A DNA stretch of 64,000 nt from Candidatus Omnitrophota bacterium. Lineage in GTDB: Bacteria > Omnitrophota > Gorgyraeia > Gygaellales > Profunditerraquicolaceae. The first letter of the stretch is position 1. The number at the start of each line of letters is the position of its first letter. Shown here piece after piece: positions 3,701 to 64,000 of this stretch. The notes beneath the pieces are model-generated. The model ran no database searches and was not told the origin of the DNA. It saw nothing but the letters and a program-made list of their open reading frames with translations. The DNA lies in contig JALOQK010000006.1 of the NCBI GenBank assembly GCA_025453395.1, positions 22,539 through 86,538 on the forward strand. Reading direction: 5' to 3'. A program made the position numbers and the translations under genes.

Positions 3701-3767
3701 GCATCATTAACCCGTAGATTGCCAAGCCTACGCCGAAAACAAAAATTGAAATCAAGAAAATTAACAT
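741..3767 (-). CDS. elongation factor G paralog with N-terminal transmembrane helix + ~290 aa coiled-coil/acidic linker extension (1008 aa)
   Basis: Residues ~320-1008 align along their whole length with EF-G ([127 protein letters not shown]). Residues 1-22 are hydrophobic ([22 protein letters not shown]). Residues ~25-230 are K/E/Q-rich heptad-like coiled coil. Residues ~230-315 form a P/E/Q-rich acidic linker. The frame is continuous with no stop. Confidence 0.85.
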
Positions 3768-29112: not shown

Positions 29113-29498
29113 TTTGAAAGACCCTCTAGATAAACTTGATAAGCGTTATTATCCATAAGCTTGGCTTTTTCTTGCTCATTATCAAGCTGGATCACAAAGA
29201 AAAAACCTTTTTCATAGCAAGACTTGTTAACTAATTCAGGATGGCTGGCCAATTCTGGATTAACAGATAAAACTGTGCCGGAAAATGGGCTATAAACGTC
29301 CGATGCCGCCTTAACCGACTCTACAACCGCCGCCGGATCAGCTTGTTTTAATGCTTTCCCGACTTTTGGTAAATCTACAAATGTAATATCTCCCAATGAA
29401 CCCTGGGCATAATCAGTAATACCGACATAAGCGGTTTTACCTTCTACGCGCGCCCATTCATGATCTTTGGTATAAAGAAGATTTTCTGGAATATTCAT
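29109..29498 (-). CDS. gcvH: glycine cleavage system H protein
   Basis: MNIPENLLYTKDHEW...VESVKAASDVYSPFSG contains the lipoyl-lysine motif. I prefer the start at M16 (29498), which has AGGAGG 7 nt upstream, over the upstream ATG at 29543. Confidence 0.9.
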   Translation of the reverse strand: MNIPENLLYTKDHEWARVEGKTAYVGITDYAQGSLGDITFVDLPKVGKALKQADPAAVVESVKAASDVYSPFSGTVLSVNPELASHPELVNKSCYEKGFFFVIQLDNEQEKAKLMDNNAYQVYLEGLSK

Positions 29499-29543
29499 CA
29501 AACTTGATCCTCCTGTTATAGCATTATTTTGTCGCCCCACCAT

Positions 29544-30647: not shown

Positions 30648-31358
30648 CTACAAAAGATTACTTTGGGAAAGCAAATTCTTATCACTTAGGATGTTTTGGG
30701 CCGATCCGTCAGCAAGGACTTGCCCTTTGTGAAGGACAATAATGCGATTACACAAATCACGCGCCATATCCAGATCATGGGTAGCGATAATCTTAGTATG
30801 CTTAAAACCCTTGAGTAATTCTATCAAGAGCCTGCGCGAACGCGGGTCAAGGCTGGAACTTGGCTCATCCATAACCAAGATATCCGGAGACATCGCCAAC
30901 ACGACAGCTATTGAAACAGCGCGTTTTTCGCCTTGAGAAAGTTTATAGGGCGGCCTTTTAGAAAGATGCTCTGCCCCTACTTGACCAAGAGACTCCTCTA
31001 CTTTTCTTTCTGCTTCCTCTTTAGTTAAACCTAAATTTAACGGGCCAAAAGCCACATCATCAAAAACTGTGGGCATAAAAAGCTGATCATCGGGATTCTG
31101 GAATATCATGCCTACGGCCTTACGCACATCTTTCAAGTTATCTTTGGTAATCGGATAATCCCCTATTCTTACGGAACCTTTTGTAGGGGTTAAATAGCCG
31201 TTTAAATGCAAGAGAAGCGTGGATTTACCTGCGCCGTTTTCTCCCACAACTGCCACAGACTCTCCATGGGTAATGCGAAAAGATACCCCCTTTAAAACAC
31301 AAGTACCGTCGGGATAAGAATAATGCAAATCAGCCGCTTCTACAATATGATGGCTCAT
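30648..31358 (-). CDS. cbiO: ECF/cobalt-nickel ABC transporter ATP-binding protein
   Basis: Walker A GENGAGKST, signature LSQGEKRAVSIA and Walker B ILVMDEP. Confidence 0.8.
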   Translation of the reverse strand: MSHHIVEAADLHYSYPDGTCVLKGVSFRITHGESVAVVGENGAGKSTLLLHLNGYLTPTKGSVRIGDYPITKDNLKDVRKAVGMIFQNPDDQLFMPTVFDDVAFGPLNLGLTKEEAERKVEESLGQVGAEHLSKRPPYKLSQGEKRAVSIAVVLAMSPDILVMDEPSSSLDPRSRRLLIELLKGFKHTKIIATHDLDMARDLCNRIIVLHKGQVLADGSAQNILSDKNLLSQSNLL

Positions 31359-32201
31359 CTAACCTTTTATGATAAAATTGCCCAGATATAAAGATAAATC
31401 AAAAGATCTTAAGAAAATAAATAGCGCAAGCCACAAGAATAGAAAAATAAATCCATCAATGCCAAATTTCATACTACGCATAACATGCATATTGCCGTCA
31501 AAACCCCGGCAGCACATGGCCAGGTATATGCGTTCCGCCCTCTGAAATGTGCGCAGCAATAGATTCCCCAAGAACGGCCCGGATATCTCTAGTGACATAA
31601 GATCGCGCTTAAAGGACCTGAAAGATGCCGCCCTTATCATCCCGGATACCTGATCAATCAAAACAAATATATAGCGGTAAAGAAACAACAACTGTTGCAC
31701 AAAAACCCTGGGCAAGCCTAATTTTGCCAAAGCATTACAAATAGCATTAAAACCAGTTAAAGAAATCAGAATAAACGCGGCGCTTGCCGTCAGAATAAAG
31801 CGCATGATTATGGAGAGAAAAGAAACCCATCCCGCGCTGACACCTATCGGACCCAGCTGCATAAAAACTTTTGTATCTACAATCGGGTTAAATATCCCTA
31901 TAAATACAGCGAAAGGCAAAAGCAATAATACCCTATTGAGTAAATACCCGGCAGGCAACCCTCCCAGAGAAATTAAGAACACAGGGTAAATAAAAAACGG
32001 CATTAACTGCCAAAGCGCGTATTTATCAAAAGAAATTACTGTGATAATAAAGGCCAAGGTAGCGATCAACTTCGCTCTAGGGTCAAGACGATGCAAAAAG
32101 CTGTTACCGCAAGATAATTCATCAAGATAATTTATATCTAACGAGCTTTTACCGATATTATTCACTTGTAACCTTGCGCCTACGTAAAACCAGCCCCGCA
32201 A
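31359..32201 (-). CDS. cbiQ: ECF transporter transmembrane (T) component CbiQ
   Basis: Polytopic 280-aa protein with CbiQ-type layout, sitting between cbiMN and cbiO. Confidence 0.7.
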   Translation of the reverse strand: MRGWFYVGARLQVNNIGKSSLDINYLDELSCGNSFLHRLDPRAKLIATLAFIITVISFDKYALWQLMPFFIYPVFLISLGGLPAGYLLNRVLLLLPFAVFIGIFNPIVDTKVFMQLGPIGVSAGWVSFLSIIMRFILTASAAFILISLTGFNAICNALAKLGLPRVFVQQLLFLYRYIFVLIDQVSGMIRAASFRSFKRDLMSLEISGPFLGNLLLRTFQRAERIYLAMCCRGFDGNMHVMRSMKFGIDGFIFLFLWLALFIFLRSFDLSLYLGNFIIKG

Positions 32202-33171
32202 TTACCGCGACAGACAAAACTAACGTTCCTCCCACCAACCCTGAAACAGATGTGCCTAAGCTTACCGCGGGGTATGAGGAAGATCCTTGGTGATTCTTAA
32301 AACCATAATCCGGCAAGACCGCGATTTTTTCCTGAATACTGGCTAAAGATGAGCCGATGCCCTCGCTTACCTCTAATTCTTCCTTACCGGAAGCCTTAAA
32401 CATTGCCCACTCCAAACCGTCGGGATTGCTGGAAGCAAACCAACTTAGTATAGCGGCGGTTACCAAACTAACCGCCAATAAACCTAAAAGCACTTTTCGC
32501 ATATCCACTTTTCCAATAGGGCGATTATTCACCGTGGCGTTAATGATTTCCGGACGCGCCTTCCAGACAAAAGCAACTACCGAAGCGGTAACCAAACCCT
32601 CTACTATTCCAATCGCCAAATGTATCGGCTGCATCAAAAGCACAAAACTTTTAAAAGGCAATTCTGATATCCCGGAAAATACTGTCTCCAGAACTACACC
32701 GAACGCCCCCAGCTGTAAACCAATAATCGCCGACAAAATAGAACCAACGATAATTTTGCCGCGCGTGAGATTATCACCAACTATTTTCTTGTAAATCATA
32801 GGATAAGCAATGAAGCTTGTGAAAAACCCCAGATTAAAGATATTGCACCCTAAGGCAAGAAGCCCACCGTCGGCAAATAAAAACGCCTGAACCGTTAATA
32901 TAGAAGCCATAACTAAAAATGCAGCGTATGGCCCTAAAAGAATACTTAGGATCATGCCTCCACCCAAATGCCCGCTAGAACCAGTAGCAGGAATGCTAAA
33001 ATTGATCATCTGAGCGGCAAAAATAAACGCGCCCAACACCCCCATTAAAGGGACTTTACGCTGATCTGACTCGTTTTTGACCTTCTTTGCGCTGTAAGCG
33101 ATAAGACTTGCGCTTGCCGCCCACATCACGCCACCTACTACCGGAGATAACAACGCATCTGCCATATGCAT
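32158..33171 (-). CDS. cbiM: cobalt/nickel ECF transporter substrate component CbiM fused with CbiN-like C-terminal extension
   Basis: N-terminal MHMADALLSPVVGG is the CbiM/NikM signature with N-terminal Met-His metal ligands. The 337-aa length and the extra C-terminal TM segments suggest a CbiMN fusion. Confidence 0.75.
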   Translation of the reverse strand: MHMADALLSPVVGGVMWAASASLIAYSAKKVKNESDQRKVPLMGVLGAFIFAAQMINFSIPATGSSGHLGGGMILSILLGPYAAFLVMASILTVQAFLFADGGLLALGCNIFNLGFFTSFIAYPMIYKKIVGDNLTRGKIIVGSILSAIIGLQLGAFGVVLETVFSGISELPFKSFVLLMQPIHLAIGIVEGLVTASVVAFVWKARPEIINATVNNRPIGKVDMRKVLLGLLAVSLVTAAILSWFASSNPDGLEWAMFKASGKEELEVSEGIGSSLASIQEKIAVLPDYGFKNHQGSSSYPAVSLGTSVSGLVGGTLVLSVAVIAGLVLRRRKVTSE

Positions 33172-33189
33172 AATTTATGCCTTTCTTTA

Positions 33190-34542
33190 TTAGAAGTCTA
33201 CTTGTGCCCTAACTCCGCCAATAAATATACCCGCTGTATCACCAGACACATCTTTTCCAAAAGGATTCCAGATATACTGCAAATCCGGGCTTACTGATAA
33301 ATACTTATTCAAGAAGATTTTATAGTAAGTCTCAAAATGCCCCTCGGGTTTAGCCAAATAATTATTTCTCTTCTTATATTTTACAGACGGGAATATTTGC
33401 CCCACAGCAATTCCCAAAACATCATTATCCCTTCCCCAGGGTTTACCTTCAAGTTGAAGCCCTGCGCTCCAGGATTGCCCAAGAGAATAATTTATATTCC
33501 CTGTTGCAAGCGTATCCGGGTTATATACCTTTGGATACTGCCAGCCATAACGAGTAAAAACTGTAGCCATATCATTTAATCTTTGATCAAAACTCAAACC
33601 CGCTCCGTAAGAATTCTCTTTTGTCTTGTCCGTATCTGTCCACTTAGTGTGGTACGCATTATTATTCCAGGCATAAAAACGATAATTACCGTCTAGATTG
33701 AAAAGCTTTGGCTTAAAATTGATTTCTCCCATATTAAATAAATTATCGCCTAACTTTTCCCAATCACTATTTGCGTCAAGAACCTCATAACCCAACTCCA
33801 CCCAATCTTTGGGCATATAAGCAACACGGATAGCCGCTGAATTACCAGGAAATTCTACAACTGGATTATTTACAAACATACCACTTAAGAATTGTGCTGT
33901 CTCATCATTAGCTGCCTGGTTATTATCAAAATATGCCGTAGGATCTAATTTCCCAACTGTTAAGGCAAGCTTACCATTTAAAAGCATCTGCTCATACCAG
34001 GCTTCAGTTAAATGCGCGTCCTCATTGTTATCTGGATCATTGTTTACATTGGAATATAATGTTAAGTCATCGTTCAGGCCATCACCTTTACCCGCCTCAA
34101 GATGCACAAAGGCCCTGGAATTAGCGTCCTGGAATTCCTTGATCAAAATTATATCTGTTGAATACGAAGCATCTGTGCGGTCAGACTTCTTCTCTACGCC
34201 CGAAGTAGCGTTATTCACGTTGCTGGTTCCTTGAGCGATCGCGGTAATGCCAACGCTTATATCCAAACCTTTGGCAAGCTCTACCGGAGAGATTTCTTTG
34301 CGGGTTATTTTCTCATCAAGCTGTGATAATCTTAACTCATAATCGCTTATTTTAGCCTGCTGGGCAGATGATTCATTCTTCTGACTTGCGATATATGCAT
34401 CCTGCTGGGAGAGTTTTTGCTCTAAAATTTCAATGCGTTTCTGCAATTGCCTAACCACATCTTCAATTGGTGTTTGATCTGCAAAAATTTGTGAAACGGA
34501 TAAAAATAAGAAACATAACCCCAAGCACATCCTTAGTAACAT
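33190..34542 (-). CDS. outer-membrane porin with N-terminal coiled-coil segment
   Basis: Signal peptide, a ~70-aa coiled coil (QLQKRIEILEQKLSQQ), then an amphipathic beta-strand-rich domain ending in a C-terminal Phe (...RAQVDF). Confidence 0.5.
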   Translation of the reverse strand: MLLRMCLGLCFLFLSVSQIFADQTPIEDVVRQLQKRIEILEQKLSQQDAYIASQKNESSAQQAKISDYELRLSQLDEKITRKEISPVELAKGLDISVGITAIAQGTSNVNNATSGVEKKSDRTDASYSTDIILIKEFQDANSRAFVHLEAGKGDGLNDDLTLYSNVNNDPDNNEDAHLTEAWYEQMLLNGKLALTVGKLDPTAYFDNNQAANDETAQFLSGMFVNNPVVEFPGNSAAIRVAYMPKDWVELGYEVLDANSDWEKLGDNLFNMGEINFKPKLFNLDGNYRFYAWNNNAYHTKWTDTDKTKENSYGAGLSFDQRLNDMATVFTRYGWQYPKVYNPDTLATGNINYSLGQSWSAGLQLEGKPWGRDNDVLGIAVGQIFPSVKYKKRNNYLAKPEGHFETYYKIFLNKYLSVSPDLQYIWNPFGKDVSGDTAGIFIGGVRAQVDF

Positions 34543-34574
34543 AAAACTCCTCCTTTTTATTATATATGTTATTC

Positions 34575-34988
34575 CTATATGCCTTTTCCGGTAGTAGACA
34601 TACTTAAAGAGGCGTGCCGTACCCCTTTTACAGACTTTAAAACATCAGCTAATTCTTGGGCCTTAGAAGAAGCGCCTTTGACAATGATCACTTCAAGACA
34701 ATTATGATGATCCAAATGCACATGTTGGGTAGAAATAATAAAATCTCCGAAATCATGTTGTATATCCATAAGCTTATTTACAAGCTGCCTTTCATGGTGG
34801 TCATAGATAATAGTAACTGCACCGGCTACTTCTTTTCCTTCCTGCCATTGTTTCTTTACTAAATCTTCCCTGATAAGATCCCGAATAGCTTCGGAACGAT
34901 TGGTATATTTCTTGTTCTTGATGTGACGGTCAAATTTCTCAAGCAGGTTATCTTCCAGAGAAATGCCGAATCTGACTAAACCGGACAT
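34575..34988 (-). CDS. nikR: nickel-responsive transcriptional regulator NikR
   Basis: N-terminal ribbon-helix-helix RFGISLEDNLLEKFD. C-terminal nickel-binding domain with HxxxxH...C (HVHLDHHNCLEV). Confidence 0.85.
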   Translation of the reverse strand: MSGLVRFGISLEDNLLEKFDRHIKNKKYTNRSEAIRDLIREDLVKKQWQEGKEVAGAVTIIYDHHERQLVNKLMDIQHDFGDFIISTQHVHLDHHNCLEVIIVKGASSKAQELADVLKSVKGVRHASLSMSTTGKGI

Positions 34989-46388: not shown

Positions 46389-46416
46389 AATATAGCATAT
46401 TTCTTTTTATTGTCAA
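46389..46416 (-). promoter_or_regulatory. near-consensus sigma70 promoter, candidate csp promoter giving ~256-nt 5' UTR
   Basis: Minus strand: TTGACA (46416..46411), 16-nt spacer, TATATT (46394..46389), immediately after the DUF2339 gene stop. Confidence 0.5.
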
Positions 46417-46417
46417 C

Positions 46418-49021
46418 TTATTTTTTTAGGTTTAATTTATCCGCTGTATACTTAGTGTAAACAAAAGATACCCCTAAAAATAACAAGCCTAAAACAATGA
46501 AGCTTATGATTTTATAAATAATCGGCAGCCCTGCTAAATCCACGAATATTATCCGTCCGACGGTAAACCCAAAAACAATAAAACCGCCCTTGCGGAATAT
46601 CTTCTCTTTTATCAAAAACCCTATTGCAAAAAGAACCACTCCCGCTAAGCCCCAAGAAAGCGAAATCCAAATACTTCTTACATGCTGAAAAATAGCAACA
46701 AGCATTAAAGCGGCACTTGCATAAAAAAGAACGCTGATAAGCGGCTTCTCATTTTCATCAATAAGTGATTTCTTATTTAAATTGCGATAAATAAAATATG
46801 CCGCCCAGGCGCAGGCCAGCTTAACCGATATAAGAGCCCATTGGAATACCGGATTAAGATTATAGTACTTATCGATAAAAATAAATCTGACTGCTGCCAG
46901 CAATAAAACAAGAAGCGAATATACGCGGATATGCCTGTCTTCTGCCTTAACAGCCCAAATTAACGCCATAAGCGAAACTATGGCAATGCTTAAGGTAATC
47001 CACACCTGCTGGACATAAACAATAATCGCGAAAATCAATAACGACGAGGAAGCAAAGAAAAGTAATTTAGGAAGCAAAATCTCCCTCTGTCCTTCCAGGG
47101 CATTCCTATTGGATATCCTGTACAAAATATATTCTGCGAAGAAACAGCAGGCTGGCCCATAGATAATAAATAACTGCTGAAATTCGCTTATATTGCTATA
47201 ATTATTCCAAAAACAAAATCTTAAGCCCGCCCAGGCTAAAACAACCAAGGCATACCAACGGATATATTTATCCAATAACAAAACCCCGACAGCAAAAATC
47301 AATACCGACTCCACCGATAATCCAAAGGTAAGCCACATTGGCTTTATTAATTCAATCACATACGCAGTCAAATACACCACAGAAAAGCCTGAATAAGCCC
47401 TTTTGGCTAACTGATCGAAATATGACAACCCGTCTTTTTCTCTAAAGAAGCGGTGCAAACCAAAGCAGGCTGCGGTTGAAATAAACCCCAGTAAGGACAG
47501 AAATTCCTTCCAGCTTATCTTAAAACCTGCCAGGGACAAATCGCCTGAGGGCCCGTAAAATACAAATTGCAAGAATAAAACTATTGATAACCCCACAGCC
47601 AGATAACGGTAGATGCCCCGCTTAAAGATAAAACCCACATATAGCAAAAACGGCAATTCTATCAACCAAACAACCAGGCTATGATAGGCAGCAAATTTTA
47701 ACGGCACCGACAGGGTTATCAAAGAAACCGCGATAATTATGTCAGAAATAAAGAGCTCTTTCCTCTTTAGTAATTCCATAAACATGGCTAGAACAAAATA
47801 CGCTAACCCCATGCCTAAAACCGCGCTAAACTTATAATCGGGATAGAAGAAATAGAACTTAGGATACGCCATAGCAAAAAAGAATATGAAGTTAGCAAAA
47901 TTAGCTGCGGAAAGCTTCCGGTAAACTTGGGCCTGCTTGTCATTCTTTATCAAATGCGCGGCGGCAGTAAAAAGAACCAGATATACGCATAAAAACCCTG
48001 CGTCAAAATGAAAATAAATATTTTCTACGTTTAAATTTCCTGCGGGCACAAAAGAGAATGAGATTTGTTTTATTACCCAAACCAAATGCGTAAGGTAAGT
48101 CAATGCAATGCTGACGAAAATAAAACGCACCCACTGCATTTTATATATTACCACTAATGCCACAACTGCAAGCAGGCTTGCGTTTATAAGCGAAAAATAC
48201 CCCACATCTGCCAAAACTGAAGTAAAATACCCCACAAAAAGCGCTATTGCGGTTAAGCCTTCAGATTTATAACGCAACGAATGCGCGATAATCCCCAAAG
48301 CCACAACAGATAAAAGTAATAGATCTAAAACTTGGCTATTAATTACTTTTGCCGCTTCAAAGTGATACATCGCATAAGTGGTAAAATAGGCGATCGCCCA
48401 ACCGCCGCCTAAAAGCACTCGCCCATAATTAACAAATTTATCTTTCTTCTCTAACTTTAAACCTATAACTAAAAGGCCTGCCGCAATAGCATACCCAAGC
48501 AATACCTTGGCCAATGCGCCGAATAAGAAACCAAAACGGGCAACTGTATAAGTCAATAAAAACGCTACCCCTAAAGAAAAAACTATTATCCCTATTTTAT
48601 TTAACCAGAATTTCCCTAAGTCCATCTCCAGGTCAGTTTTCTTTATAATAACTGCGGCGGGTTTTTCTATAGCAGTAATAGCAGGCTTTATTTCTTTAGG
48701 GGATGGAACTTCTTTTTTCTCTTCTAAGGTTAAGACAGATATTTTTACTTCCAAATTCCTGATCCTATCGCTTAAAGCGTTAAAATCATCCTGAATTGCT
48801 TTAAACTCATCTTTGATCTGGTTAAAAGAGGTTCCCGGGTTAATTGTTTGCGCATTAGAATTATCACTACCCGCTTTAGGCAAAATTGAAACTATTAACA
48901 ATGCCACCGGCCCCAAGGAAAACCCTAAGAAAAACCATGTCAGGCAGCTTCTGTTCTTAAGTTTAGCGACATAAACACTTGCGGCAAAACACGCCATCCA
49001 TATCAAGAAGCCATTAAACAT
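46418..49021 (-). CDS. large polytopic membrane protein, DUF2339-like (867 aa)
   Basis: N-terminal 2 TM helices, a coiled-coil stretch (IKDEFKAIQDDFNALSDRIRNLEVKISVL) and more than 20 further TM helices. The size and layout resemble the DUF2339 family. Confidence 0.5.
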   Translation of the reverse strand: MFNGFLIWMACFAASVYVAKLKNRSCLTWFFLGFSLGPVALLIVSILPKAGSDNSNAQTINPGTSFNQIKDEFKAIQDDFNALSDRIRNLEVKISVLTLEEKKEVPSPKEIKPAITAIEKPAAVIIKKTDLEMDLGKFWLNKIGIIVFSLGVAFLLTYTVARFGFLFGALAKVLLGYAIAAGLLVIGLKLEKKDKFVNYGRVLLGGGWAIAYFTTYAMYHFEAAKVINSQVLDLLLLSVVALGIIAHSLRYKSEGLTAIALFVGYFTSVLADVGYFSLINASLLAVVALVVIYKMQWVRFIFVSIALTYLTHLVWVIKQISFSFVPAGNLNVENIYFHFDAGFLCVYLVLFTAAAHLIKNDKQAQVYRKLSAANFANFIFFFAMAYPKFYFFYPDYKFSAVLGMGLAYFVLAMFMELLKRKELFISDIIIAVSLITLSVPLKFAAYHSLVVWLIELPFLLYVGFIFKRGIYRYLAVGLSIVLFLQFVFYGPSGDLSLAGFKISWKEFLSLLGFISTAACFGLHRFFREKDGLSYFDQLAKRAYSGFSVVYLTAYVIELIKPMWLTFGLSVESVLIFAVGVLLLDKYIRWYALVVLAWAGLRFCFWNNYSNISEFQQLFIIYGPACCFFAEYILYRISNRNALEGQREILLPKLLFFASSSLLIFAIIVYVQQVWITLSIAIVSLMALIWAVKAEDRHIRVYSLLVLLLAAVRFIFIDKYYNLNPVFQWALISVKLACAWAAYFIYRNLNKKSLIDENEKPLISVLFYASAALMLVAIFQHVRSIWISLSWGLAGVVLFAIGFLIKEKIFRKGGFIVFGFTVGRIIFVDLAGLPIIYKIISFIVLGLLFLGVSFVYTKYTADKLNLKK

Positions 49022-49102
49022 TATTCCGCTCCTTTTTTATAAGATCGACATTACAGTTAATGCTCCTATTTTAAAACACAAGGATAAAATAGCAAGTATT
49101 CT

Positions 49103-49630
49103 TTAAGATTTTTGCTTTAAGAATGAAATAAGATTGTGCAGGATAATAATAGGCTCTGGAGGGCAACCGGGAATATGAAGAACTACCGATCCCGTGATAG
49201 ATTGGATATCGCCTATGGCGTAATAGGAATCGCGGAAGATCCCTCCTTTTAACGCGCAATCTCCGACAGTTATGACAAATTTTGGCTCAGGCATGGAATT
49301 AAATGTTTTCTTAAGCGCAAGCGCCATATTTCTGGATACAGGCCCAGTTACTACAAGCGCATCCGCGTGACGGGGAGAAGCCACAAAATCTACGCCAAAA
49401 CGCTGAATATCATATATAGGATTGCTCAAGGCAATAAGCTCTGATTCACACGCCCCGCAGGAACCGGTATCCACTTCTCTTAAATGCAAAGACCTGCCAT
49501 AAAGTTTATGGATAATCTTCTTCAGCTGTTCCCCTGCAGAATCAATCTGGCGGCTTGATTCATCCTGCGGAAGGATAAACTTCTCTGTAAGCAGCCCCTT
49601 TTTAAAACTATTATTAATAATGTCAAACAT
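49103..49630 (-). CDS. NuoB / group-4 hydrogenase small-subunit-like Fe-S protein
   Basis: GSCGACESE, VGDCALKGG and IPGCPPEP provide the four Cys for a proximal-type [4Fe-4S] cluster. 175 aa. Confidence 0.8.
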   Translation of the reverse strand: MFDIINNSFKKGLLTEKFILPQDESSRQIDSAGEQLKKIIHKLYGRSLHLREVDTGSCGACESELIALSNPIYDIQRFGVDFVASPRHADALVVTGPVSRNMALALKKTFNSMPEPKFVITVGDCALKGGIFRDSYYAIGDIQSITGSVVLHIPGCPPEPIIILHNLISFLKQKS

Positions 49631-49635
49631 AGGAT

Positions 49636-51201
49636 TTATAAATCGTTACCCGCGTAAGATAAGTCAAAACTTTTGTTGCACACGGGGAAATCCGGGACAA
49701 TGTTTCCTAATACGGAAATTGAAAGCCCTTGCCAATTCTGAAAAGAAGGATCAACAATTTTACAGCGTTCTATTTTACCATCTGAAACCTCCAGCCAATA
49801 GATAACCGGCCCCCGAGCGCCTTCTACAGCTCCAAGAGCATGGCCCTGAACAGGAAAATTAATCTTAGGGCTTTCTAAAACGTCTGTTTGTTTAGCAAAA
49901 ACATCTATTAAGCGCAAAGACTCCTCTATTTCGTCAAGCCGCACGATTAATCGCGATAGCACATCACCTCTATCTTTTTTAACCAAGCGAAAACCTGCCT
50001 GCAGATAACCTTCAGGAAATACGCGCCTTAGATCCAAAGAAACCCCGGATGATCTGCCAGCTAAACCAACCACTCCAAAGTCCTCGGCGGTTTTCTTGCG
50101 CAATATGCCGGTTTCATCAACCCTGTCCATAAAAGACACACTGCCGTAGAGTATACCCTGCGCCTCTTTTATGTCGCGCTTAATAAGCTTTAATTCATCA
50201 AGCATATACGCGACAGCCTCTTTGTCAAAAATATTGCGCGCAAAACCCAAAGATAAAACTCCTTTAAGATACCTATGCGCTGAAAGCTTTTTATTTAATC
50301 GCAATACCCTTTCTTTAAGAACAGATATAAATTGCGCGGGAAAGCTAAAACCTACATCTAGGGCAATGCCGCTTATAGCGGTAAAGTGATTATAAATTCT
50401 TTCCAATTCTAAACAAATCGCTCTTGTGTTAAATACGCCTGATGCGATTTTAACCCCTAAGATCGCTTCAGCTGCGCGGCAGAAAGCCCAAGAATAGCCT
50501 ATTACCGAATCACCAACCACACATTCAGACAACTTTAATCCCTGCTCAAGAGTTTTTCCTTCAAAAAGTTTTTCTACTCCCCGGTGAGTAAATCCAAGGC
50601 GAAGCTCTAAGTTCACAATCGGCTCTCCGGCAACGCTAAAATGAAAGTGCCCGGGGCCGATGATCCCGGCATGCACCGGGCCAACAGGAATTTCAAATAT
50701 CCCATCGCCTTCAACCTTATTAAATTGATATTCTTTTTTAGAAACAGCTTGAACAGGCGTAAAATCTTTGCGCAAAGGCAATGTTCCTTCGGGGCAAACT
50801 TCTTCATGCAAAACAAGCGATCTTTGATCGGGATTTCCTTCTGGGATAATCCCAAACATCTCTTTTATTTGCCGCTCAAATAGCGCAGAAGAATAGATAT
50901 CACAAGCCAAAGAATCAAAACTTAAAAAGCCCTCTGCAACAGAAATAACAATAGAAACCCACAGGGGAATTTCCTTAGCCAAGAACACGCATCTTATTTC
51001 AAAATTTCCGTTTACCTGCCTTTTGTCAACGGCAAAAAGCGCCATAACCGAAGAAGAAAGCTTTGTGTGCATAAAAAGGCAGGCGGCCTTAAAATCCTCT
51101 TTGTTTATGCGCACCTCTATTTCCATGCTATTTAAAAACAATACCTCAATCGGGTTAATGTTTTTTGCGCGCAAATCCCGGATGATATTTTCTGCCTGCA
51201 T
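49636..51201 (-). CDS. fused NuoC-NuoD / hydrogenase large-subunit-like protein lacking [NiFe]-binding cysteines
   Basis: N-terminal ~150 aa are NuoC-like (30 kDa subunit). The remainder is NuoD/HycE-like (ELRLGFTHRGVEKL, VEGARGPVIYW). The N-terminal CxxC position reads LSECVVGDS, with only one Cys. The C-terminal DPCxxCxxH position reads DPSFQNWQG, with none. Confidence 0.8.
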   Translation of the reverse strand: MQAENIIRDLRAKNINPIEVLFLNSMEIEVRINKEDFKAACLFMHTKLSSSVMALFAVDKRQVNGNFEIRCVFLAKEIPLWVSIVISVAEGFLSFDSLACDIYSSALFERQIKEMFGIIPEGNPDQRSLVLHEEVCPEGTLPLRKDFTPVQAVSKKEYQFNKVEGDGIFEIPVGPVHAGIIGPGHFHFSVAGEPIVNLELRLGFTHRGVEKLFEGKTLEQGLKLSECVVGDSVIGYSWAFCRAAEAILGVKIASGVFNTRAICLELERIYNHFTAISGIALDVGFSFPAQFISVLKERVLRLNKKLSAHRYLKGVLSLGFARNIFDKEAVAYMLDELKLIKRDIKEAQGILYGSVSFMDRVDETGILRKKTAEDFGVVGLAGRSSGVSLDLRRVFPEGYLQAGFRLVKKDRGDVLSRLIVRLDEIEESLRLIDVFAKQTDVLESPKINFPVQGHALGAVEGARGPVIYWLEVSDGKIERCKIVDPSFQNWQGLSISVLGNIVPDFPVCNKSFDLSYAGNDL

Positions 51202-51202
51202 A

Positions 51203-52660
51203 TTAAACCCCTCTTATGATGTCTGTTGCCTTATTAAGCAACACCTGTGCCTGCGGCAACAAACCCAATCCGAATAAAACAAGATACAAAGATAAAATAA
51301 TGAAAACTATTTTTACACTTAGCGCATCTTGAGAAGGTTCAATGGTTTTTGGCTTATTACCAAAAACTACTCTACCCAAATGCAGCAACAACCCCGCGAA
51401 TACAATTGCCATGGATAAAAGAAATAGCGCGGTCAACAGAAAATACTTTTGCGCTAAGGCAGCAACTAATATGGTGATTTTACTAGCAAAAATCGCAAAT
51501 GGCGGCATGCCAATGATAGCAAACATTCCGATTAAAACCACTACTCCTGTAAAAGGCATCACCTCAAGAACCCCTTGTATCAAGTTCATATTATGCGTCT
51601 TGTATTTCTTAACAATATTTCCGGCAGAAAAGAATAAAAGCGACTTAGCGCAGGCATGGTTAAAACAGTGAAACAAAGCCCCCAGAATCGCAAGCGGTGT
51701 CCCTATCCCAAAGCCAAAAACAATGATCCCGACATTTTCTATACTACTATAGGCTAAAAGCCGCTTGATATCTTTTTGCGCCAGCATAAATAGGCTTGCC
51801 ACAGCTATGGAAAATATTCCCGCGTAGAGCATCACCGTAAAAGCAAAATTTACCTCTAATGATTTATCCACGATGATCACAAAGCGCAAGATAGCGTAAA
51901 TAGATGTCTTTAGCAAAACGCCTGACAATAACGCGCTAATAGGGGTCATGGCTTGGCTATGCGCGTCCGGAAGCCATGTATGCATGGGAACTAATCCTGC
52001 CTTAGTGCCATAACCCACAAAGACAAATAAAAACGCAACCACTAATAATCTATGGTCAAGCTGAGCGGCAACGCTTACTATATCAGACCAATTCAAGCTT
52101 CTTATTCCGGCATGAAGCACCACATTGTAATACAATAATACTGTACCTAAGAGAGCGATAGTAATACCCACCGAACAAATAATAAGATACTTCCATGCTG
52201 CTTCCACTGAAGTTTTATTATTATAAAATCCTACCAGAAACGTAGAGGCAAGTGTCGTCATTTCAATGGCCACCCAAAGATGCCCCAGATTATCTACTAA
52301 AGTGGCAACAAGCATGCTAAAGACAAAAATATGGAAGAAGAAATAATATAAAGACTTCTTACGGGCGCTTAACTCTCCTTCTTCGGTATGCTCAAGATAA
52401 CCTTTAGAGTAAACAAGCGCCCAAAGGCTAACCCAGGTGATCAACAAAACAAAAAACACGCTTAACGCGTCGGCGCGCAGTAATCTTTCAAACACCACAA
52501 CCGGTTGCTTAACACAAATAGTATAGGCAAGGCCCATGCCCAATGCCAACATGGCCGCGTATAAAAAAACATTTATTAGCGCCAGCAAGCGTTTATTACG
52601 CAAAACCAATGAAAAGCATGCTGCCAAGAAAGGAAACGCTATTAAACAAACAAGTAACAT
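51203..52660 (-). CDS. NuoM/HyfF/MrpD-like antiporter-type membrane subunit
   Basis: KRLLAYSSIENVGIIVFGFG and the conserved TM core of complex-I antiporter-like subunits, 485 aa. Confidence 0.8.
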   Translation of the reverse strand: MLLVCLIAFPFLAACFSLVLRNKRLLALINVFLYAAMLALGMGLAYTICVKQPVVVFERLLRADALSVFFVLLITWVSLWALVYSKGYLEHTEEGELSARKKSLYYFFFHIFVFSMLVATLVDNLGHLWVAIEMTTLASTFLVGFYNNKTSVEAAWKYLIICSVGITIALLGTVLLYYNVVLHAGIRSLNWSDIVSVAAQLDHRLLVVAFLFVFVGYGTKAGLVPMHTWLPDAHSQAMTPISALLSGVLLKTSIYAILRFVIIVDKSLEVNFAFTVMLYAGIFSIAVASLFMLAQKDIKRLLAYSSIENVGIIVFGFGIGTPLAILGALFHCFNHACAKSLLFFSAGNIVKKYKTHNMNLIQGVLEVMPFTGVVVLIGMFAIIGMPPFAIFASKITILVAALAQKYFLLTALFLLSMAIVFAGLLLHLGRVVFGNKPKTIEPSQDALSVKIVFIILSLYLVLFGLGLLPQAQVLLNKATDIIRGV

Positions 52661-52665
52661 CTTAC

Positions 52666-53301
52666 TTAACCCCTAAGCTGCGTTAAACGATTAACATCAA
52701 TATGGGTAAAAAGCCTATTTATCCGGTATAAAAATATCCCGGTAATAATAACACAAACAAATACGTCAAAGAATATGGCGATCTCCACGAAAAATGGCAT
52801 ACCGTCGGTAATTGCCGCGGCCAGAAGAAAGATCCCATTCTCCATGGTAAGTAACCCCACGATCTGAGTAATCGCCTTGGCTCTAAAGACCATAATAAAG
52901 AATCCAATAAACATAGTGACCATGGCAATAATAAGCGATATGCAGATAAGCGGGTCCTGATTGCGCAAAACTATTATCGCGAATAAAGAAGATACGAATG
53001 TAAACAATAACGCTGCCACCAAAGAAAGAAGCGGATTCATAAATAACCCCAAAGACTCATCAATATTTATTTTTTCCATAAGCCTTCTTAAATAATACGG
53101 AATGCCAAGCACTTTTATCATGACCAATAATACCGAGACAATATAAATCTCTAAATTCGCCGCTTTATAGGCAAAGGAAAAAGTTACAAGCGCCAAAAAC
53201 AATGATTGCAGGCGGAAACTTCTTATTAAGGCAGTTACCCTGCGGGTAATTACCATAGAATAAGCAAACATCATCATCCCCAATAAAAACGCATACATCA
53301 T
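52666..53301 (-). CDS. HyfE/NuoK-class small polytopic membrane subunit
   Basis: 211 aa with 6-7 TM helices. Assigned by position and size within the operon. Confidence 0.45.
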   Translation of the reverse strand: MMYAFLLGMMMFAYSMVITRRVTALIRSFRLQSLFLALVTFSFAYKAANLEIYIVSVLLVMIKVLGIPYYLRRLMEKINIDESLGLFMNPLLSLVAALLFTFVSSLFAIIVLRNQDPLICISLIIAMVTMFIGFFIMVFRAKAITQIVGLLTMENGIFLLAAAITDGMPFFVEIAIFFDVFVCVIITGIFLYRINRLFTHIDVNRLTQLRG

Positions 53302-53303
53302 CT

Positions 53304-54224
53304 TTATACTCCAAGCCTTGCCATGACTAACGCTAAAATAGAAAGCAAGAAACTAAAGCCTAAGAAATCTACCGCCCTAAAAAGGCGCATCTTGGCAAGC
53401 ATGATCTCTAATACGCTTATCGCAAAACCAATGCAAAATATTTTACCCATAAACCAAACAGCGGAAACAAGATAAACCTGCAAAGGATCCTGTAAAGAAA
53501 CCGGAAACGGCCAAAGAATACTAGCTAGCACAGAAAAGAAAAGCATCTGTTTTATATGCGCGCTTAATTCTAAGATGGCAAGAGACCTTCCCGAATACTC
53601 AAGAAGCATCGCTTCATGTATCATGGTCAATTCAAGATGAGTTTCTTGATTATCAACCGGAATCCGCGAAGTTTCCGCGATCACCACCAACAATAAAGAA
53701 ACAGAAGCAACTAATATCGATACAGGAGTATTTACCAAACTAAGCGCGGACGGTAAATTAAGGCTTCCGGATTTTAACCCCACTACCGCTATCGCGCTAA
53801 TCGCTACTGGTTCAGCTAAACTAGATATAAACATATCTCTGGAAGAACCCATTCCACCAAAAGAACTACCGGTGTCAAGGCCTGCTAAAACAAGAAAAAA
53901 CCTCCCTAGGGAAAGAAAAAAGAAAAGCGCCAACACTCCTCCAATAGCCGAAATCCCGCAAGAAAAATGAAACACCGGCACAAACAAAAACGCAGTTACA
54001 ACAGACGCCAGGACTATATAAGGAGAGGCGCGGAAAATAACAGAAGCATGCTGGGGGATTACCTCTTCTTTGGCAAAATACTTAAACATATTATAGTAAG
54101 GCTGTAAGACAGGGCTTCCTTTACGCATGTGAAGCGAATTCTTTAGCTTTCGCATAATCCCGCTTAAAAAAGGCGAAATCACGATAAGAATAATGATCTG
54201 CAGGAAGAAAAATAAAATTTCCAT
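53304..54224 (-). CDS. NuoH/HycD-like membrane subunit
   Basis: PVLQPYYNMFKYFAKEEV matches the conserved NuoH/HycD loop (Q-P-x-x-D/N-x-x-K-x-x-x-KE). 306 aa. Confidence 0.8.
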   Translation of the reverse strand: MEILFFFLQIIILIVISPFLSGIMRKLKNSLHMRKGSPVLQPYYNMFKYFAKEEVIPQHASVIFRASPYIVLASVVTAFLFVPVFHFSCGISAIGGVLALFFFLSLGRFFLVLAGLDTGSSFGGMGSSRDMFISSLAEPVAISAIAVVGLKSGSLNLPSALSLVNTPVSILVASVSLLLVVIAETSRIPVDNQETHLELTMIHEAMLLEYSGRSLAILELSAHIKQMLFFSVLASILWPFPVSLQDPLQVYLVSAVWFMGKIFCIGFAISVLEIMLAKMRLFRAVDFLGFSFLLSILALVMARLGV

Positions 54225-54227
54225 ATT

Positions 54228-56090
54228 TTATCTTGTTAAAATAAAGACCATGACCCCGATAAACATAACTAAGATATACCCCAAATACCAATGGACGCTG
54301 CCCATCTGAAACAATTTAATGCGCTTAGCCGCTAGGAAAAACCCCCTTACTAAAGGCAGATAAAAATATTCCTTAAATACAGGGATAGTGCCTACTTCAT
54401 ATTTAAAACTTTTCACGTGATAATATGATTCCCTTAACTTCTCCACTTTTCTCTGGGGCAAGAAAAAGAAACTAAAGGCAATCCTAAAAGGCTTGGAAAA
54501 AGCTGTGGCAGTGTATTCGTTGCGCGCGGTCAACTTATAATAACCGCAATCCCAGGTTGAAGCGCGGGTCACCTTTGAAGGGCCAGCCAATATTCTGATT
54601 AAAAAATACACAAATAATAAAACCCCAATAAAAACGCCACCAATTAGCGGCATATTCAATAATGTTCCGGAAACTAAAATATTTTGCGTATCCACAATAG
54701 GCTGAGACGCTGTACCAATAATTCCTTGCGCTACCTGATTTAGGATTTGCCAAACAAAAGACGCAAACAGGCTCAAAACCAAAATCCCAACTGCCAATAT
54801 CCCCATTCCAATTTTCATACTCAAATTAATTTCCGCGGCTTGCTGGGCGCGCGCACTGCGTGGCATAGCTAGAAACCCAATACCAAAACATCTTACAAAA
54901 CAAGCTGCGGCCAAACCGCCTGTAACCGCTAAGCAGGCCATCATCATCACAAAAAATATTTTATACGCTCCAGTCAAAGAAACTGCCGCGCCAAAAAGGC
55001 TCTGCAATATCAACCATTCGCTGACAAAACCATTAAAAGGCGGAATCCCGGATATGGCAAGCGCGCCAACCAAGAAAAATCCGGCAGTCCAAGGCATAAG
55101 TTTTATCAAGCCGCCCATTTTCTCCAAGTCGCGCGTTCCGGTTGCTTTATAGACACTACCCGCGCCTAAGAAAAGAAGCCCCTTAAATACCGCGTGATTT
55201 AATAAATGAAATAACCCTGCGGCGCAGGCAATTACTGCAAGGACGTTTTGCTGTTTATACATAAGGACCATACTTGCGCCGATACCCAAAAGGATGATCC
55301 CTATATTCTCAACGCTTGAATAGGCCAATAATTTCTTGATATCGCGCTCCAAAAGAGCGTACATGACGCCTACTAAACAAGTTAATCCTGCCAAAAATAA
55401 AACACTTACTCCCCACCAAACTTGCGGCACTCCTAACATCCCTAAGGCTATTCTTAAGAAACCATAGATCGCAACTTTAATCATAACTCCAGACATAATA
55501 CTTGAAATATGCGACGGGGCTTGGGGATGTGCCAGGGGCAACCAGATATGAAGCGGAACAATCCCGGCTTTAGTTCCAAAACCAATCAGGAAGAATAGAA
55601 AAAGTATATTTTTAACGCCTAAAGGGATCAGGGGAATGCAATTTTTTACTGCAGTAAAATCAAACGACCCGGCGTAACCATAGATGATGATAAAACCTGC
55701 TGCTAAGAATGCAGTACCCACATGCGTCATTAGTAAATAAACCAACCCTGCGTCAACAGACTGATGGTGCTGGTGGTCAAAAACTACAAGAAAATATGAA
55801 ACTAACGACATTAATTCCCAAGCAAAAAGAAAAGCTAACAGATTAGAGACACATACAACTAGGGCCATGGATAAAATAAACAAAAGCGCCAACACAGTTA
55901 TCACAAATAACCGCATAGGCGCGTAATGTCCTTTTAAATACCCATAAGAATAGACTAAGGCTGGAACCGATACGATGGATAATACGGACAGAAATAGTAC
56001 AGAAAGAAAATCTATATGGAAGCTAATGTTATTTAATAGCCACATGATATTAAAAGCATAAGCGGGTGGCTTTGGGGATTCCATAACCAC
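54228..56090 (-). CDS. NuoL/HyfB/MrpA-like antiporter-type membrane subunit
   Basis: LFAWELMSLVSYFLVVF, KKLLAYSSVENIGIILLG and AVFKGLLFLGAGSV over 620 aa. Confidence 0.8.
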   Translation of the reverse strand: MVMESPKPPAYAFNIMWLLNNISFHIDFLSVLFLSVLSIVSVPALVYSYGYLKGHYAPMRLFVITVLALLFILSMALVVCVSNLLAFLFAWELMSLVSYFLVVFDHQHHQSVDAGLVYLLMTHVGTAFLAAGFIIIYGYAGSFDFTAVKNCIPLIPLGVKNILFLFFLIGFGTKAGIVPLHIWLPLAHPQAPSHISSIMSGVMIKVAIYGFLRIALGMLGVPQVWWGVSVLFLAGLTCLVGVMYALLERDIKKLLAYSSVENIGIILLGIGASMVLMYKQQNVLAVIACAAGLFHLLNHAVFKGLLFLGAGSVYKATGTRDLEKMGGLIKLMPWTAGFFLVGALAISGIPPFNGFVSEWLILQSLFGAAVSLTGAYKIFFVMMMACLAVTGGLAAACFVRCFGIGFLAMPRSARAQQAAEINLSMKIGMGILAVGILVLSLFASFVWQILNQVAQGIIGTASQPIVDTQNILVSGTLLNMPLIGGVFIGVLLFVYFLIRILAGPSKVTRASTWDCGYYKLTARNEYTATAFSKPFRIAFSFFFLPQRKVEKLRESYYHVKSFKYEVGTIPVFKEYFYLPLVRGFFLAAKRIKLFQMGSVHWYLGYILVMFIGVMVFILTR

Positions 56091-56165
56091 CCGCTTATAT
56101 TAGTATTTAATTTTGTTGCCTTTATTATACCGCCGGAGAAGATTTTGTCAAGTAGGATCCCTAAA

Positions 56166-56465
56166 CTAATTTGGCATCTTGTGTTTCATCGGGCTTTCTG
56201 GCATAGGCATATTGTTTTGCCTATTCACATCCGTTTTTGAACACCCTATCTGCCCCATAGAAGCCTTGTTAAAATGATAAAATGTCTTTACTACTTTGAA
56301 AAATACCCCTGCCGCGCACAGCCACAAAAGCACCGCTATTGTATAACCGAATGCCTTCATTGCTTGCGCGTCCTGTTTTCGGGCAACCACAAGCACAAAG
56401 AAACTTACCGCCAAAATCACCACCGTATGAAGAAATAAAAATGTTCCGCTTTGTGTCATGCACAT
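56166..56465 (-). CDS. small 2-TM membrane protein, hypothetical
   Basis: The ORF is open to 56570 but overlaps the upstream nuclease gene, so I place the start at MCMTQ. Two hydrophobic helices and a His/Met/Pro-rich C-terminus (MPMPESPMKHKMPN). Confidence 0.35.
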   Translation of the reverse strand: MCMTQSGTFLFLHTVVILAVSFFVLVVARKQDAQAMKAFGYTIAVLLWLCAAGVFFKVVKTFYHFNKASMGQIGCSKTDVNRQNNMPMPESPMKHKMPN

Positions 56466-63336: not shown

Positions 63337-64000
63337 TCAATACGGCCATTTCCAACTGCGGATTTCTGGCAAATCTTGACCGCTGGTAGTTATATACTGC
63401 CTGTGTTCAATAAGTTTATTATGCAGCCAATCTTTAACATGGGCAGCTTTATTCTTGAGGCTTTCCACACGGTCGATCACGTCGTCAGCCAAATTAAAAC
63501 GATCAAGTTCATTTAATACTGCCATATCAAATGGGGTAGTGGTCGTGCCCTCTTCTTTATAACCGCGCACATGCACATTATTGTGATTAGTGCGCCGGTA
63601 AATCAAACGATGCACCAGCCACGGATAACCATGAAAGGCAAAGATCACCGGCTTATCAATTGTAAACAAACTGTCAAAATCTTTATCCGAAAGCCCATGC
63701 GGATGCTCACTCTGCGGCTGAAGCGTCATCAAATCAACTACGTTCACAACGCGAATCTTTAGATCCGGGAATTTCTGCCGTAAAATATCTACTGCCGCCA
63801 AAGTCTCTAAAGTCGGCACATCACCGGCGCAAGCCATAACCACATCCGGCTCTTGGCCATGGTCATTACTTGCCCAATCCCAAATGCCTATACCTTTAGT
63901 GCAATGCTGGATCGCGGAATCCATATCCAAATACTGCAATCCGGGATGTTTTCCGGCGATTATCACATTTACATAATTACGGCTTTTCAAACAGTGGTCT
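63337..64000 (-). CDS. xfp: phosphoketolase (Xfp), C-terminal part; N-terminus beyond window end
   Basis: [43 protein letters not shown] and the C-terminal WKWPY match the phosphoketolase C-terminal domain. The frame stays open to position 64000. Confidence 0.8.

Follow-up and report, generated by a model that had tools for sequence, protein, structure and literature searches.

The 64-kb window analysed here (the whole stretch of 64,000 nucleotides from a Candidatus Omnitrophota contig, to which all statements about missing genes refer) carries on its minus strand a compact group of six genes, 49103-56084. Judged by sequence, this group is almost certainly an ehrABCDLS operon (hyqBCEFGI-type) of the energy-converting hydrogenase-related (Ehr)/Hyq family. 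All six open reading frames (ORFs) are intact. The first, ehrA (54228-56084), encodes a HyfB/HycC/NuoL-like antiporter-like subunit of 618 aa from its ATG, or 620 aa from an alternative GTG start at 56090. It is followed by ehrB (53304-54224), coding for a HycD/MbhM/NuoH-like membrane anchor of 306 aa; ehrC (52666-53301), for a HyfE-like small membrane subunit of 211 aa; ehrD (51203-52660), for a HyfF/NuoM-like antiporter-like subunit of 485 aa; ehrL (49636-51201), for a fused NuoC-NuoD/HycE-like large subunit of 521 aa without nickel ligands; and ehrS (49103-49630), for a NuoB/HycG/MbhJ-like small subunit of 175 aa with four cysteines. The anatomy is that of four membrane subunits (two antiporter-like subunits, the anchor and the HyfE-like subunit) and two cytoplasmic subunits (the NuoC-NuoD fusion and the NuoB-like protein). 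Successive genes are separated by 3, 2, 5, 1 and 5 nt; the tight packing described in an initial annotation of this DNA therefore holds, except that its range of 2-5 nt has to be extended down to 1 nt.

A promoter-like site, TTGACA-16-TATAAT (56124-56151, minus strand), matches the sigma-70 consensus at 12 of 12 positions and is the sole perfect site found when 11.6 kb were scanned on both strands. Because it falls between the stop of a small upstream ORF (56166) and the start of ehrA (56084), the operon most likely begins at ehrA. The full order in the direction of transcription is small ORF, ehrA, ehrB, ehrC, ehrD, ehrL, ehrS, a DUF2339 gene and a cold-shock gene. When essentially all ORFs of at least 110 aa in the window were annotated with Pfam, none proved to be a nuoI/hycF, hyp, nuoEFG or fdh gene, and no Rfam feature or tRNA was found in the window either. 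Nor do the missing subunits lie just beyond the operon: the flanking genes are unrelated, and the six genes are the only ones between the promoter at 56151 and the DUF2339 gene.

The identities that the initial annotation gave to the six genes are borne out by Pfam matches far beyond chance and by NCBIfam; none of the six proteins reaches the curated cut-off of any NCBIfam model. EhrA matches Proton_antipo_M (Pfam, 2e-59) and, among solved structures, HycC best (7z0s_C, 1e-67); its NCBIfam HyfB score is 608 bits against a cut-off of 667, with a match that begins at model position 71. It lacks the N-terminal transmembrane helices 1 and 2 (TM1-2) of HyfB, HyqB and the Nitrospira and archaeal EhrA. 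The loss is common to the whole clade of Omnitrophota, Saganbacteria and Elusimicrobia relatives in which the window falls, and the position of the promoter leaves no space for TM1-2 in the ehrA of the window. EhrD likewise matches Proton_antipo_M (4.5e-53), scores 456 bits with HyfF (NCBIfam cut-off 610) and has MbhH as its best PDB match (6e-41). The relay residues E144, K234, K265 and E407 of NuoM correspond to E90, K172, K203 and E356 in EhrA and to E133, K220, K251 and K394 in EhrD, where all four canonical positions are filled. The cysteine of the ND3-like loop, C537 in HycC, is C513 in EhrA and is kept in 56 of 57 sequences. EhrB (Pfam NADHdh, 5e-39) is far nearer to HycD (111 bits) and MbhM (100 bits) than to E. 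coli NuoH (29 bits). Its ND1-like loop is conserved, and the loop between TM5 and TM6 carries the motif PVDNQETHLELTMIHEAMLLEYSG with a family-specific three-residue insertion also present in Rhizobium HyqC. EhrC, with about seven hydrophobic segments, matches NCBIfam HyfE (2.9e-21, 76 bits against a cut-off of 136) and shares 24% of its residues with E. coli HyfE and 29% with HyqE; its C-terminal part shows a weak Pfam match to Oxidored_q2 (NuoK), and no PDB relative was found by sequence.

EhrL combines the Pfam domains Complex1_30kDa (PF00329) and Complex1_49kDa (PF00346) on a single protein. Its best PDB match is E. coli HycE (7z0s_E, 5.5e-46, residues 43-519), ahead of MbhL and Thermus Nqo4, and its NCBIfam NuoD score is 168 against a cut-off of 360. 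An identical protein (100%) from an 89-kb metagenome contig is deposited at JGI/NCBI under Candidatus Omnitrophica with the name "NADH-quinone oxidoreductase subunit C". In an explicit alignment, for which the E. coli hyc, hyf and nuo operons and the Rhizobium hyq operon served as references, the four nickel ligands C241, C244, C531 and C534 of HycE correspond to V229, S232, S515 and G518 of EhrL. The L1 region, RxCGxCxxxH in hydrogenases, reads ECVVGDSVIGY, and the L2 region, DPCxxCxxR/H in hydrogenases, reads DLSYAGNDL. Of the 120 database proteins closest to EhrL, which are mostly from Omnitrophota and 52-100% identical, all 120 are without the ligand cysteines, as are all 82 family large subunits compared. 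In the latter set the four positions are occupied by Ser in 67 of 82 (Val in the window), by Thr, Ser, Asn or Glu, by Ser in 82 of 82, and by Gly in 80 of 82. The quinone ligands of Thermus Nqo4, His38 and Tyr87, are replaced as well, by I181 and G230. EhrL has extra cysteines at C227, C480 and C508, which were considered as a new metal site; the corresponding positions across the family are mostly Arg, variable and Ile, respectively, and this candidate was rejected.

Other functional residues of HycE, mapped with the help of the formate hydrogenlyase (FHL) structure paper (PMC9474812), are retained. Those of the canopy and the proton path, R478, H284, R395 and E437, correspond to R463, H272, R383 and E424 in EhrL, which are conserved in 82, 80, 81 and 82 of the 82 large subunits, respectively. 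In the beta1-beta2 loop, H188 of HycE is H177 in EhrL and is kept in 82 of 82. Over the same 82 sequences, 89 columns are at least 95% conserved. HycE and NuoCD both share 47 of them, HycE alone shares 19 and NuoCD alone 3, and 20 are specific to the family. These 20 cluster in two segments lining the former active site, the beta1-beta2 loop (165-189) and the C-terminal strand (501-518). On this alignment the EhrL pocket is remodelled and under purifying selection, not decayed.

The small subunit EhrS matches Pfam Oxidored_q6 (8e-25), the PDB chains of MbhJ (1.3e-30) and HycG (3e-29), and the NCBIfam NuoB subfamily with 112.5 against a cut-off of 116. Its C58-x-x-C61, C125 and C156 align with the cluster cysteines of HycG, HyfI and HyqI and are kept in 77-79 of 79 relatives; they are predicted to ligate a single [4Fe-4S] cluster. 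The motif is of the hydrogenase CxxC type (SCGAC), as opposed to the tandem cysteines (SCC) of E. coli NuoB. Like the rest of its clade, the EhrS of the window lacks a ferredoxin-like domain. The 2x[4Fe-4S] HycF/NuoI-like module varies within the family. This clade and Nitrospira do without it; Methanoperedens and Methanomassiliicoccales encode it in a gene of its own that lies between ehrL and ehrS; in Bacillota, Methanocella, Ignavibacteria and one Omnitrophota genome it forms an N-terminal fusion with EhrS; and in Thaumarchaeota it appears degenerate. EhrS proteins without the module start with the motif MF.I(L/I)K...K.G..T, and a motif of this type forms the extreme N-terminal amphipathic helix of HycF/NuoI (PMC9474812). 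Against a profile of this helix, Nitrospira EhrS scores 26-36 bits, and the related loci L003 and L007 score 17.6 and 16.8 bits; shuffled sequences reach at most 4.1 bits, and EhrS proteins encoded after a separate ferredoxin gene at most 2.6 bits. We infer that the module-less EhrS probably derives from a fused protein that lost the cluster-binding core and kept the membrane-surface helix.

A tblastn search of the window found no HycF/NuoI-like gene elsewhere in it. Its matches at about 4.1 kb and 19.8 kb belong to a DUF362-Fer4 protein (3768-4832) and to an unrelated 259-aa Fer4 protein (19663-20442), and were rejected on account of their unrelated architecture. In the related genome of Velamenicoccus archaeovorus (CP019384; L005:11582-11924), ehrL and ehrS are separated by a non-coding gap of 343 nt, at the place where archaeal relatives have a ferredoxin gene of equal length. 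A decayed ferredoxin gene was looked for in this gap and rejected: it contains no ORF of at least 40 aa and no tblastn trace.

When one genome of each species was scanned for two peptide patterns taken from the beta1-beta2 loop, confirmed relatives came to light in at least 596 species, and the loci of the best 80 of these relatives were analysed. The order A-B-C-D-L-S is found in nearly all of the 80, with S first in a Rokubacteria-type group. The carriers include Omnitrophota, Saganbacteria, Elusimicrobia, Nitrospira (among them N. moscoviensis), rhizobia, Methanoperedens, Methanomassiliicoccales, Thaumarchaeota, Bacillota and CPR bacteria. Three EhrL signatures are found family-wide: GP(V/I)HAG(V/I)I(E/G)PGHFRF, E(R/C)xxGD(S/T/N/E) and FPxxNKS(F/L)xLSYSGND. 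In a neighbour-joining tree of large subunits (519 columns), all 82 of 82 Ehr/Hyq sequences, HyqG included, form one group, which is sister to HycE/HyfG with NuoCD as outgroup; within it, and in the same tree without support values, the window falls in the Omnitrophota/Saganbacteria/Elusimicrobia clade. Several loci show variations on the common plan. One Nitrospirota genome (L082:4823-19892) contains two complete Ehr operons in tandem; upstream of the Methanoperedens loci (L040, L042, L046) lies a second EhrA-like gene; an extra antiporter-like gene brings some Nitrospira operons (L030, L032, L033) to seven genes; and the Methanomassiliicoccales operons (L047, L054, L074) adjoin a second, more distant complex-I-like (Fpo-like) cluster.

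By sequence criteria, this operon is neither a [NiFe] hydrogenase nor complex I. The initial annotation had proposed as much, and had placed the operon among the Ehr complexes on a large subunit without the two CxxC nickel motifs, a NuoB-like protein with four cysteines, and the lack of NuoI/HycF, formate dehydrogenase, hyp and NuoEFG genes. Each of these points stands: all four ligand positions are non-cysteine when scored against HycE, the ligands are likewise absent from the 82 relatives, the small subunit retains C58, C61, C125 and C156, and the four kinds of genes were not found in the operon or the window. The gene order fits the published Ehr/Hyq descriptions, and the phylogeny that it had suggested as a check groups the window with Ehr/Hyq, apart from HycE/HyfG and NuoCD. 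The NuoC-NuoD fusion, the CxxC loss, the four-Cys small subunit, the gene order and the grouping in the tree are all those of the Ehr/Hyq family.

The system is of a kind already described, as Ehr since 2005-2013 and as Hyq since 2009, and this locus is another member with modest clade-specific variation. As far as the alignments go, the clade-specific traits are an EhrA without TM1-2, the replacement of the beta1-beta2 Glu by Gly, and an EhrS without a ferredoxin-like domain. The founding Ehr of Geobacter sulfurreducens is described as consisting of ehrA-1, A-2, B, C, D, L and S (Coppi 2005, Marreiros 2013), its EhrL and EhrS being given within GSU0739-45. As described, it resembles the window in its subunit set, in the NuoC-NuoD fusion and in a large subunit without CxxC motifs. 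In the literature the name Ehr has been used for Geobacter, Nitrospira, Margulisbacteria, Saganbacteria and CPR systems. The Nitrospira and Saganbacteria Ehr are direct relatives of the window operon, with 39-52% identity and identical gene order, whereas the Margulisbacteria and Firmicutes Ehr have a NuoI-like domain fused to EhrS, which the EhrS of the window lacks. The Hyq system of Azorhizobium caulinodans and other rhizobia (PMC2650096, PMC3357923) has six structural genes in the order of the window; its HyqG is a NuoC::D fusion without either CxxC, and its HyqI has a CxxC and two further cysteines, as in the window. HyqG, HyqC and HyqI of the Rhizobium johnstonii pRL11 hyq operon share the motifs GD, NKSF..SYSG and TM(I/V)HEAM with the window, and identities between the two operons range from 29% (HyqE) to 45% (HyqI). 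Unlike the window, Hyq has a full-length HyqB with TM1-2, an upstream regulator hyqR and the beta1-beta2 Glu. It is nif-regulated in aerobic diazotrophs, and its H2 activity has been claimed from genetics.

More distant systems show which parts are shared. E. coli Hyc (PDB 7Z0S) provides the best solved relatives of ehrA, ehrB and ehrL, with HycG second-best for ehrS behind MbhJ, and E. coli Hyf matches the window operon in order and homology (hyfB-C-E-F-G-I). Both Hyc and Hyf have the canopy Arg, the His/Arg/Glu of the proton path, the ND3-like loop Cys and the ND1-like loop; unlike them, the window operon has no [NiFe] site, HycF/HyfH, HycB/HyfA, HyfD, FdhF or maturation genes, and over the trimmed alignment columns HycE and HyfG are 26-27% identical to EhrL. 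The 2x[4Fe-4S] subunit of group-4 hydrogenases (HycF/EchF/MbhN) is not encoded in the operon or the window. In Pyrococcus Mbh (6CFW), MbhH, MbhJ, MbhL and MbhM are first- or second-best PDB matches of the window proteins, but Mbh has the nickel ligands, the NuoI-like MbhN and a separate Mrp-type Na+ module. The sulfane reductase MBS (6U8Y) is a precedent for a member of the superfamily working without a NiFe site, although its subunits match the window proteins much more weakly (70, 59 and 41 bits). Complex I (NDH-1) shares with the window the homologues of NuoB, C, D, H and L/M as well as the Lys/Glu relay of the antiporter-like subunits. It is built from 11 subunits or more, NuoA, I, J, K and N among them, with E, F and G added in the 14-subunit form; the six-gene operon lacks NuoA, E, F, G, I, J, K and N as such. 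Mrp antiporters consist of an MrpA-G set without redox subunits, whereas the window combines MrpA/D-like proteins with integral NuoB- and NuoCD-like subunits.

The explanation that we favour for the whole, and which we consider probable, is a six-subunit, nickel-free Ehr/Hyq complex that is linked to ferredoxin and translocates ions. As read from the alignments, the subunit set, one cluster-binding motif, the ion-translocation residues, the coupling loops and the proton path are present, and the nickel and quinone ligands are absent. In the proposed mechanism, the single [4Fe-4S] cluster of EhrS would undergo redox turnover at the remodelled pocket, which stands in place of the [NiFe] or quinone site. 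The conserved loops (beta1-beta2, ND1-like, ND3-like and NuoB) would couple this turnover to the translocation of H+ or Na+ by EhrA and EhrD, driven by the redox reaction or driving it in reverse, by analogy with FHL, Mbh and complex I. Electrons would enter or leave through a ferredoxin-type partner with 2x[4Fe-4S], a role suggested by the HycF/NuoI-like module, which family members lack, encode separately or carry as a fusion; the retention of its N-terminal helix motif by the NuoI-less EhrS was also counted for the ferredoxin link. In the clade of the window, which would have lost the partner module, a soluble ferredoxin may dock directly, and the other substrate would react at the pocket, lined by Ser, Asp, Asn and Lys. 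Ferredoxin-linked ion pumping, taken as a claim of its own, is put forward tentatively, as a serious possibility to which we give somewhat less than even chances.

Several observations weigh against this explanation. No activity has been shown biochemically for any Ehr, and the sole genetics, those of Hyq, were read as hydrogenase activity. A single cluster and the lack of an identifiable second substrate site leave the redox reaction undefined; the genome is seen through 64 kb, and partner genes elsewhere would be outside this view. The acidic residues of the beta1-beta2 loop that are proton donors in HycE, D192 and E193, are I181 and G182 in EhrL. At the E193 position Gly is found in 18 of 82 large subunits, all in the clade of the window, and Glu in 63 of 82; with both acidic residues missing in this clade, the case for proton-coupled chemistry at the pocket is weaker. 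The N-terminus of the EhrS of the window, MFDIINNSFKKGLLT, matches the HycF/NuoI helix profile weakly, with 7.6 bits. The tree has no bootstrap or other support values and its outgroups are from E. coli only, and the link to the Ehr name rests on the Nitrospira, Saganbacteria and Hyq relatives, the Geobacter EhrL having been compared by description. A stronger version of the proposal is doubtful: that no working machine of the complex I superfamily is more reduced than the Omnitrophota/Saganbacteria/Elusimicrobia form, which would receive its electrons straight from soluble ferredoxin and couple a new reaction at the pocket to ion transport. This version is based on the one [4Fe-4S] cluster, the lack of the NuoI module, the EhrA without TM1-2 and the lack of an acidic beta1-beta2 donor.

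Other explanations of the same operon have to be weighed. A cysteine-less hydrogenase, oxidising or evolving H2 at an unconventional site of the large subunit as suggested for the Hyq 'endo-hydrogenase', could be argued from the deletion of hyqRBCEFGI in Azorhizobium caulinodans, which slows diazotrophic growth and whose H2 uptake and evolution phenotypes were ascribed to Hyq (PMC2650096, PMC3357923). The Rhizobium Hyq proteins carry the signatures of the window, and the canopy Arg and proton path of hydrogenases are kept. We nevertheless regard it as very unlikely. The four metal ligands are replaced family-wide, neither hyp maturation genes nor a C-terminal endopeptidase gene were found in the window, and the clade of the window is without the Glu193 proton donor; the extra cysteines noted by the Hyq authors are not family-conserved (the equivalents of C227 and C508 being mostly Arg and Ile), the same authors called a Ni,Fe site 'uncertain, if not unlikely', and the Hyq enzyme was never purified. 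Little better is the case for a minimal complex I, that is, a ferredoxin (or H2):quinone oxidoreductase working at the NuoB-NuoD-NuoH interface, which seems to us unlikely. The core homologues NuoB, C, D, H, L and M are all present, EhrL matches PF00346 and the NuoD models of NCBIfam, and Hyq itself has been modelled in its literature as a 'core L-type' quinone reductase. Yet both Nqo4 quinone ligands are missing, the EhrS motif is CxxC and not the tandem Cys of complex I, EhrB is far nearer to HycD and MbhM than to NuoH, the invariant columns shared with HycE alone (19) exceed those shared with NuoCD alone (3), and the NuoD and NuoB scores are all under their cut-offs. Ehr is also present in lineages that are reported in the literature to be without quinone synthesis. 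The operon might, finally, be redox-inactive or decaying, either as a Mrp-like cation/proton antiporter in which the peripheral subunits are structural or as a non-functional hydrogenase leftover. There is no electron-input module and no recognisable substrate site, both antiporter-like subunits are complete, and a 2026 paper treats the Geobacter Ehr as non-functional, such a leftover having been suggested for Geobacter KN400. The six intact ORFs speak against this, and the conserved remodelled pocket argues against a decaying relic: the cluster cysteines, the pocket and the coupling loops are conserved in bacteria and archaea alike, which is unexpected under relaxed selection. Moreover, all Ehr subunits are reported to be abundant in formate-grown Geobacter, NuoB/CD homologues do not occur in Mrp systems, and the window operon is without the remaining Mrp subunits. 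A relic therefore appears quite improbable.

The last alternative concerns the neighbours of the operon. The initial annotation had suggested that both flanking genes may belong to the module; it had also reversed their positions, because on the minus strand the small ORF is upstream of the operon and the DUF2339 gene downstream. The former (56166-56459) encodes a protein of 97 aa (99 aa from 56465) with two transmembrane segments (2-TM) and a Met/Pro-rich tail, and the latter (46418-49021) a polytopic membrane protein of 867 aa (Pfam DUF2339, 2e-45); both lie outside the conserved module. If they were accessory subunits replacing the missing parts of the peripheral arm, the module would have eight genes. 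Both are on the shared strand, with a spacing of 81 nt on either side (small ORF to ehrA and ehrS to DUF2339), and since no terminator-like hairpin follows ehrS, read-through into DUF2339, and with it co-transcription, could take place in this one organism. The small ORF is called as a gene in two assemblies and has a single weak relative, a similar Met-rich 2-TM ORF upstream of the Ehr operon of another locus (L020:4705-5103; phmmer E 3e-5). Against this stands the record of other genomes. The 80 loci from other species have no DUF2339 homologue beside Ehr, and L003 and L005, the closest relatives, have none either; in the closest relative of all (69% identity) a cold-shock gene directly follows ehrS, and in Velamenicoccus archaeovorus the neighbours of Ehr are unrelated. 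DUF2339 orthologues are common in Omnitrophota, and the four closest on long contigs have unrelated neighbourhoods with no Ehr genes within 9 kb. The perfect promoter separates the small ORF from ehrA, and most members of the clade have no small ORF upstream of ehrA. Among 656 flanking ORFs clustered from 83 loci no partner gene is conserved family-wide, and the clusters found are generic only: response regulators (13 loci), an unannotated family of about 140 aa (12 mostly archaeal loci) and ABC ATPases. An eight-gene module is thus extremely unlikely, and by genomic context the two neighbours appear to be there by chance.

The small ORF was also considered as a split-off TM1-2 of EhrA, comparable to the EhrA-1/A-2 of Geobacter. 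This was rejected, as the profile of the N-terminal 70 aa of full-length EhrA matches it with E 0.11 and a true split TM1-2 piece, in L047, with 1e-11. The small ORF has no Pfam family above threshold. A small 2-TM ORF before the Ehr operon is sporadic, occurring in 2 of about 17 clade members, both Omnitrophota. The Met-rich C-terminal tail is NMPMPESPMKHKMPN in the window and consists of long MMGGM/MQGM repeats in L020. On the other side, a second promoter-like site, TTGACA-16-TATATT with an extended -10 TG (46389-46416, minus strand, 11 of 12 matches), directly follows the DUF2339 stop and precedes the cold-shock gene.

The Ehr/Hyq family, widespread in at least 596 species that include methanogens and ammonia-oxidising archaea, has been placed between hydrogenases and complex I in evolutionary schemes and has no demonstrated reaction. 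The window adds no new kind of system. The comparison sharpens the question, in that the pocket is remodelled, the proton path and coupling loops are kept, and the ferredoxin module is modular; together these features point to ferredoxin as one partner. If the clade form is indeed the most reduced machine of the superfamily, it would represent a new enzymatic activity for a family of this spread. There may also be a practical consequence for genome surveys based on markers, in which Ehr may be scored as complex I or as a hydrogenase. One published survey of Omnitrophota genomes (PMC10066038) took PF00346 as its sign of respiratory complex I. Because EhrL passes this Pfam model with 100 bits against a cut-off of 24, Ehr may be counted as complex I. 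The same survey reports a '4g NiFe hydrogenase' in Velamenicoccus archaeovorus, and in the genome of this species the Ehr operon is annotated 'formate hydrogenlyase subunit 5'.

Some other parts of the window deserve mention. About 12 kb from the hydrogenase-like operon without a nickel site lies an ECF-type Ni/Co uptake cluster (30648-34988, minus strand), which comprises a NikR-type nickel-responsive repressor (34575-34988), an OprB-family porin, a CbiM-PDGLE fusion, CbiQ and an ABC ATPase; other Ni/Co enzymes are presumably encoded elsewhere in the organism. On the same strand, 25605-30626 holds a complete set of glycine cleavage genes (GcvT, GcvH and split GcvP1/P2) together with a lipoate-protein ligase. 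Also on the minus strand, a Na+/H+ exchanger (PF00999) carries a PTS EIIA-2 domain as a C-terminal fusion (15915-17645), which suggests cation exchange under phosphorylation control, and an EF-G-like GTPase of 1008 aa (741-3767) has an N-terminal extension of about 315 residues ahead of its GTP_EFTU domain. A C-terminal fragment of a phosphoketolase (63337-63990) runs off the end of the window.

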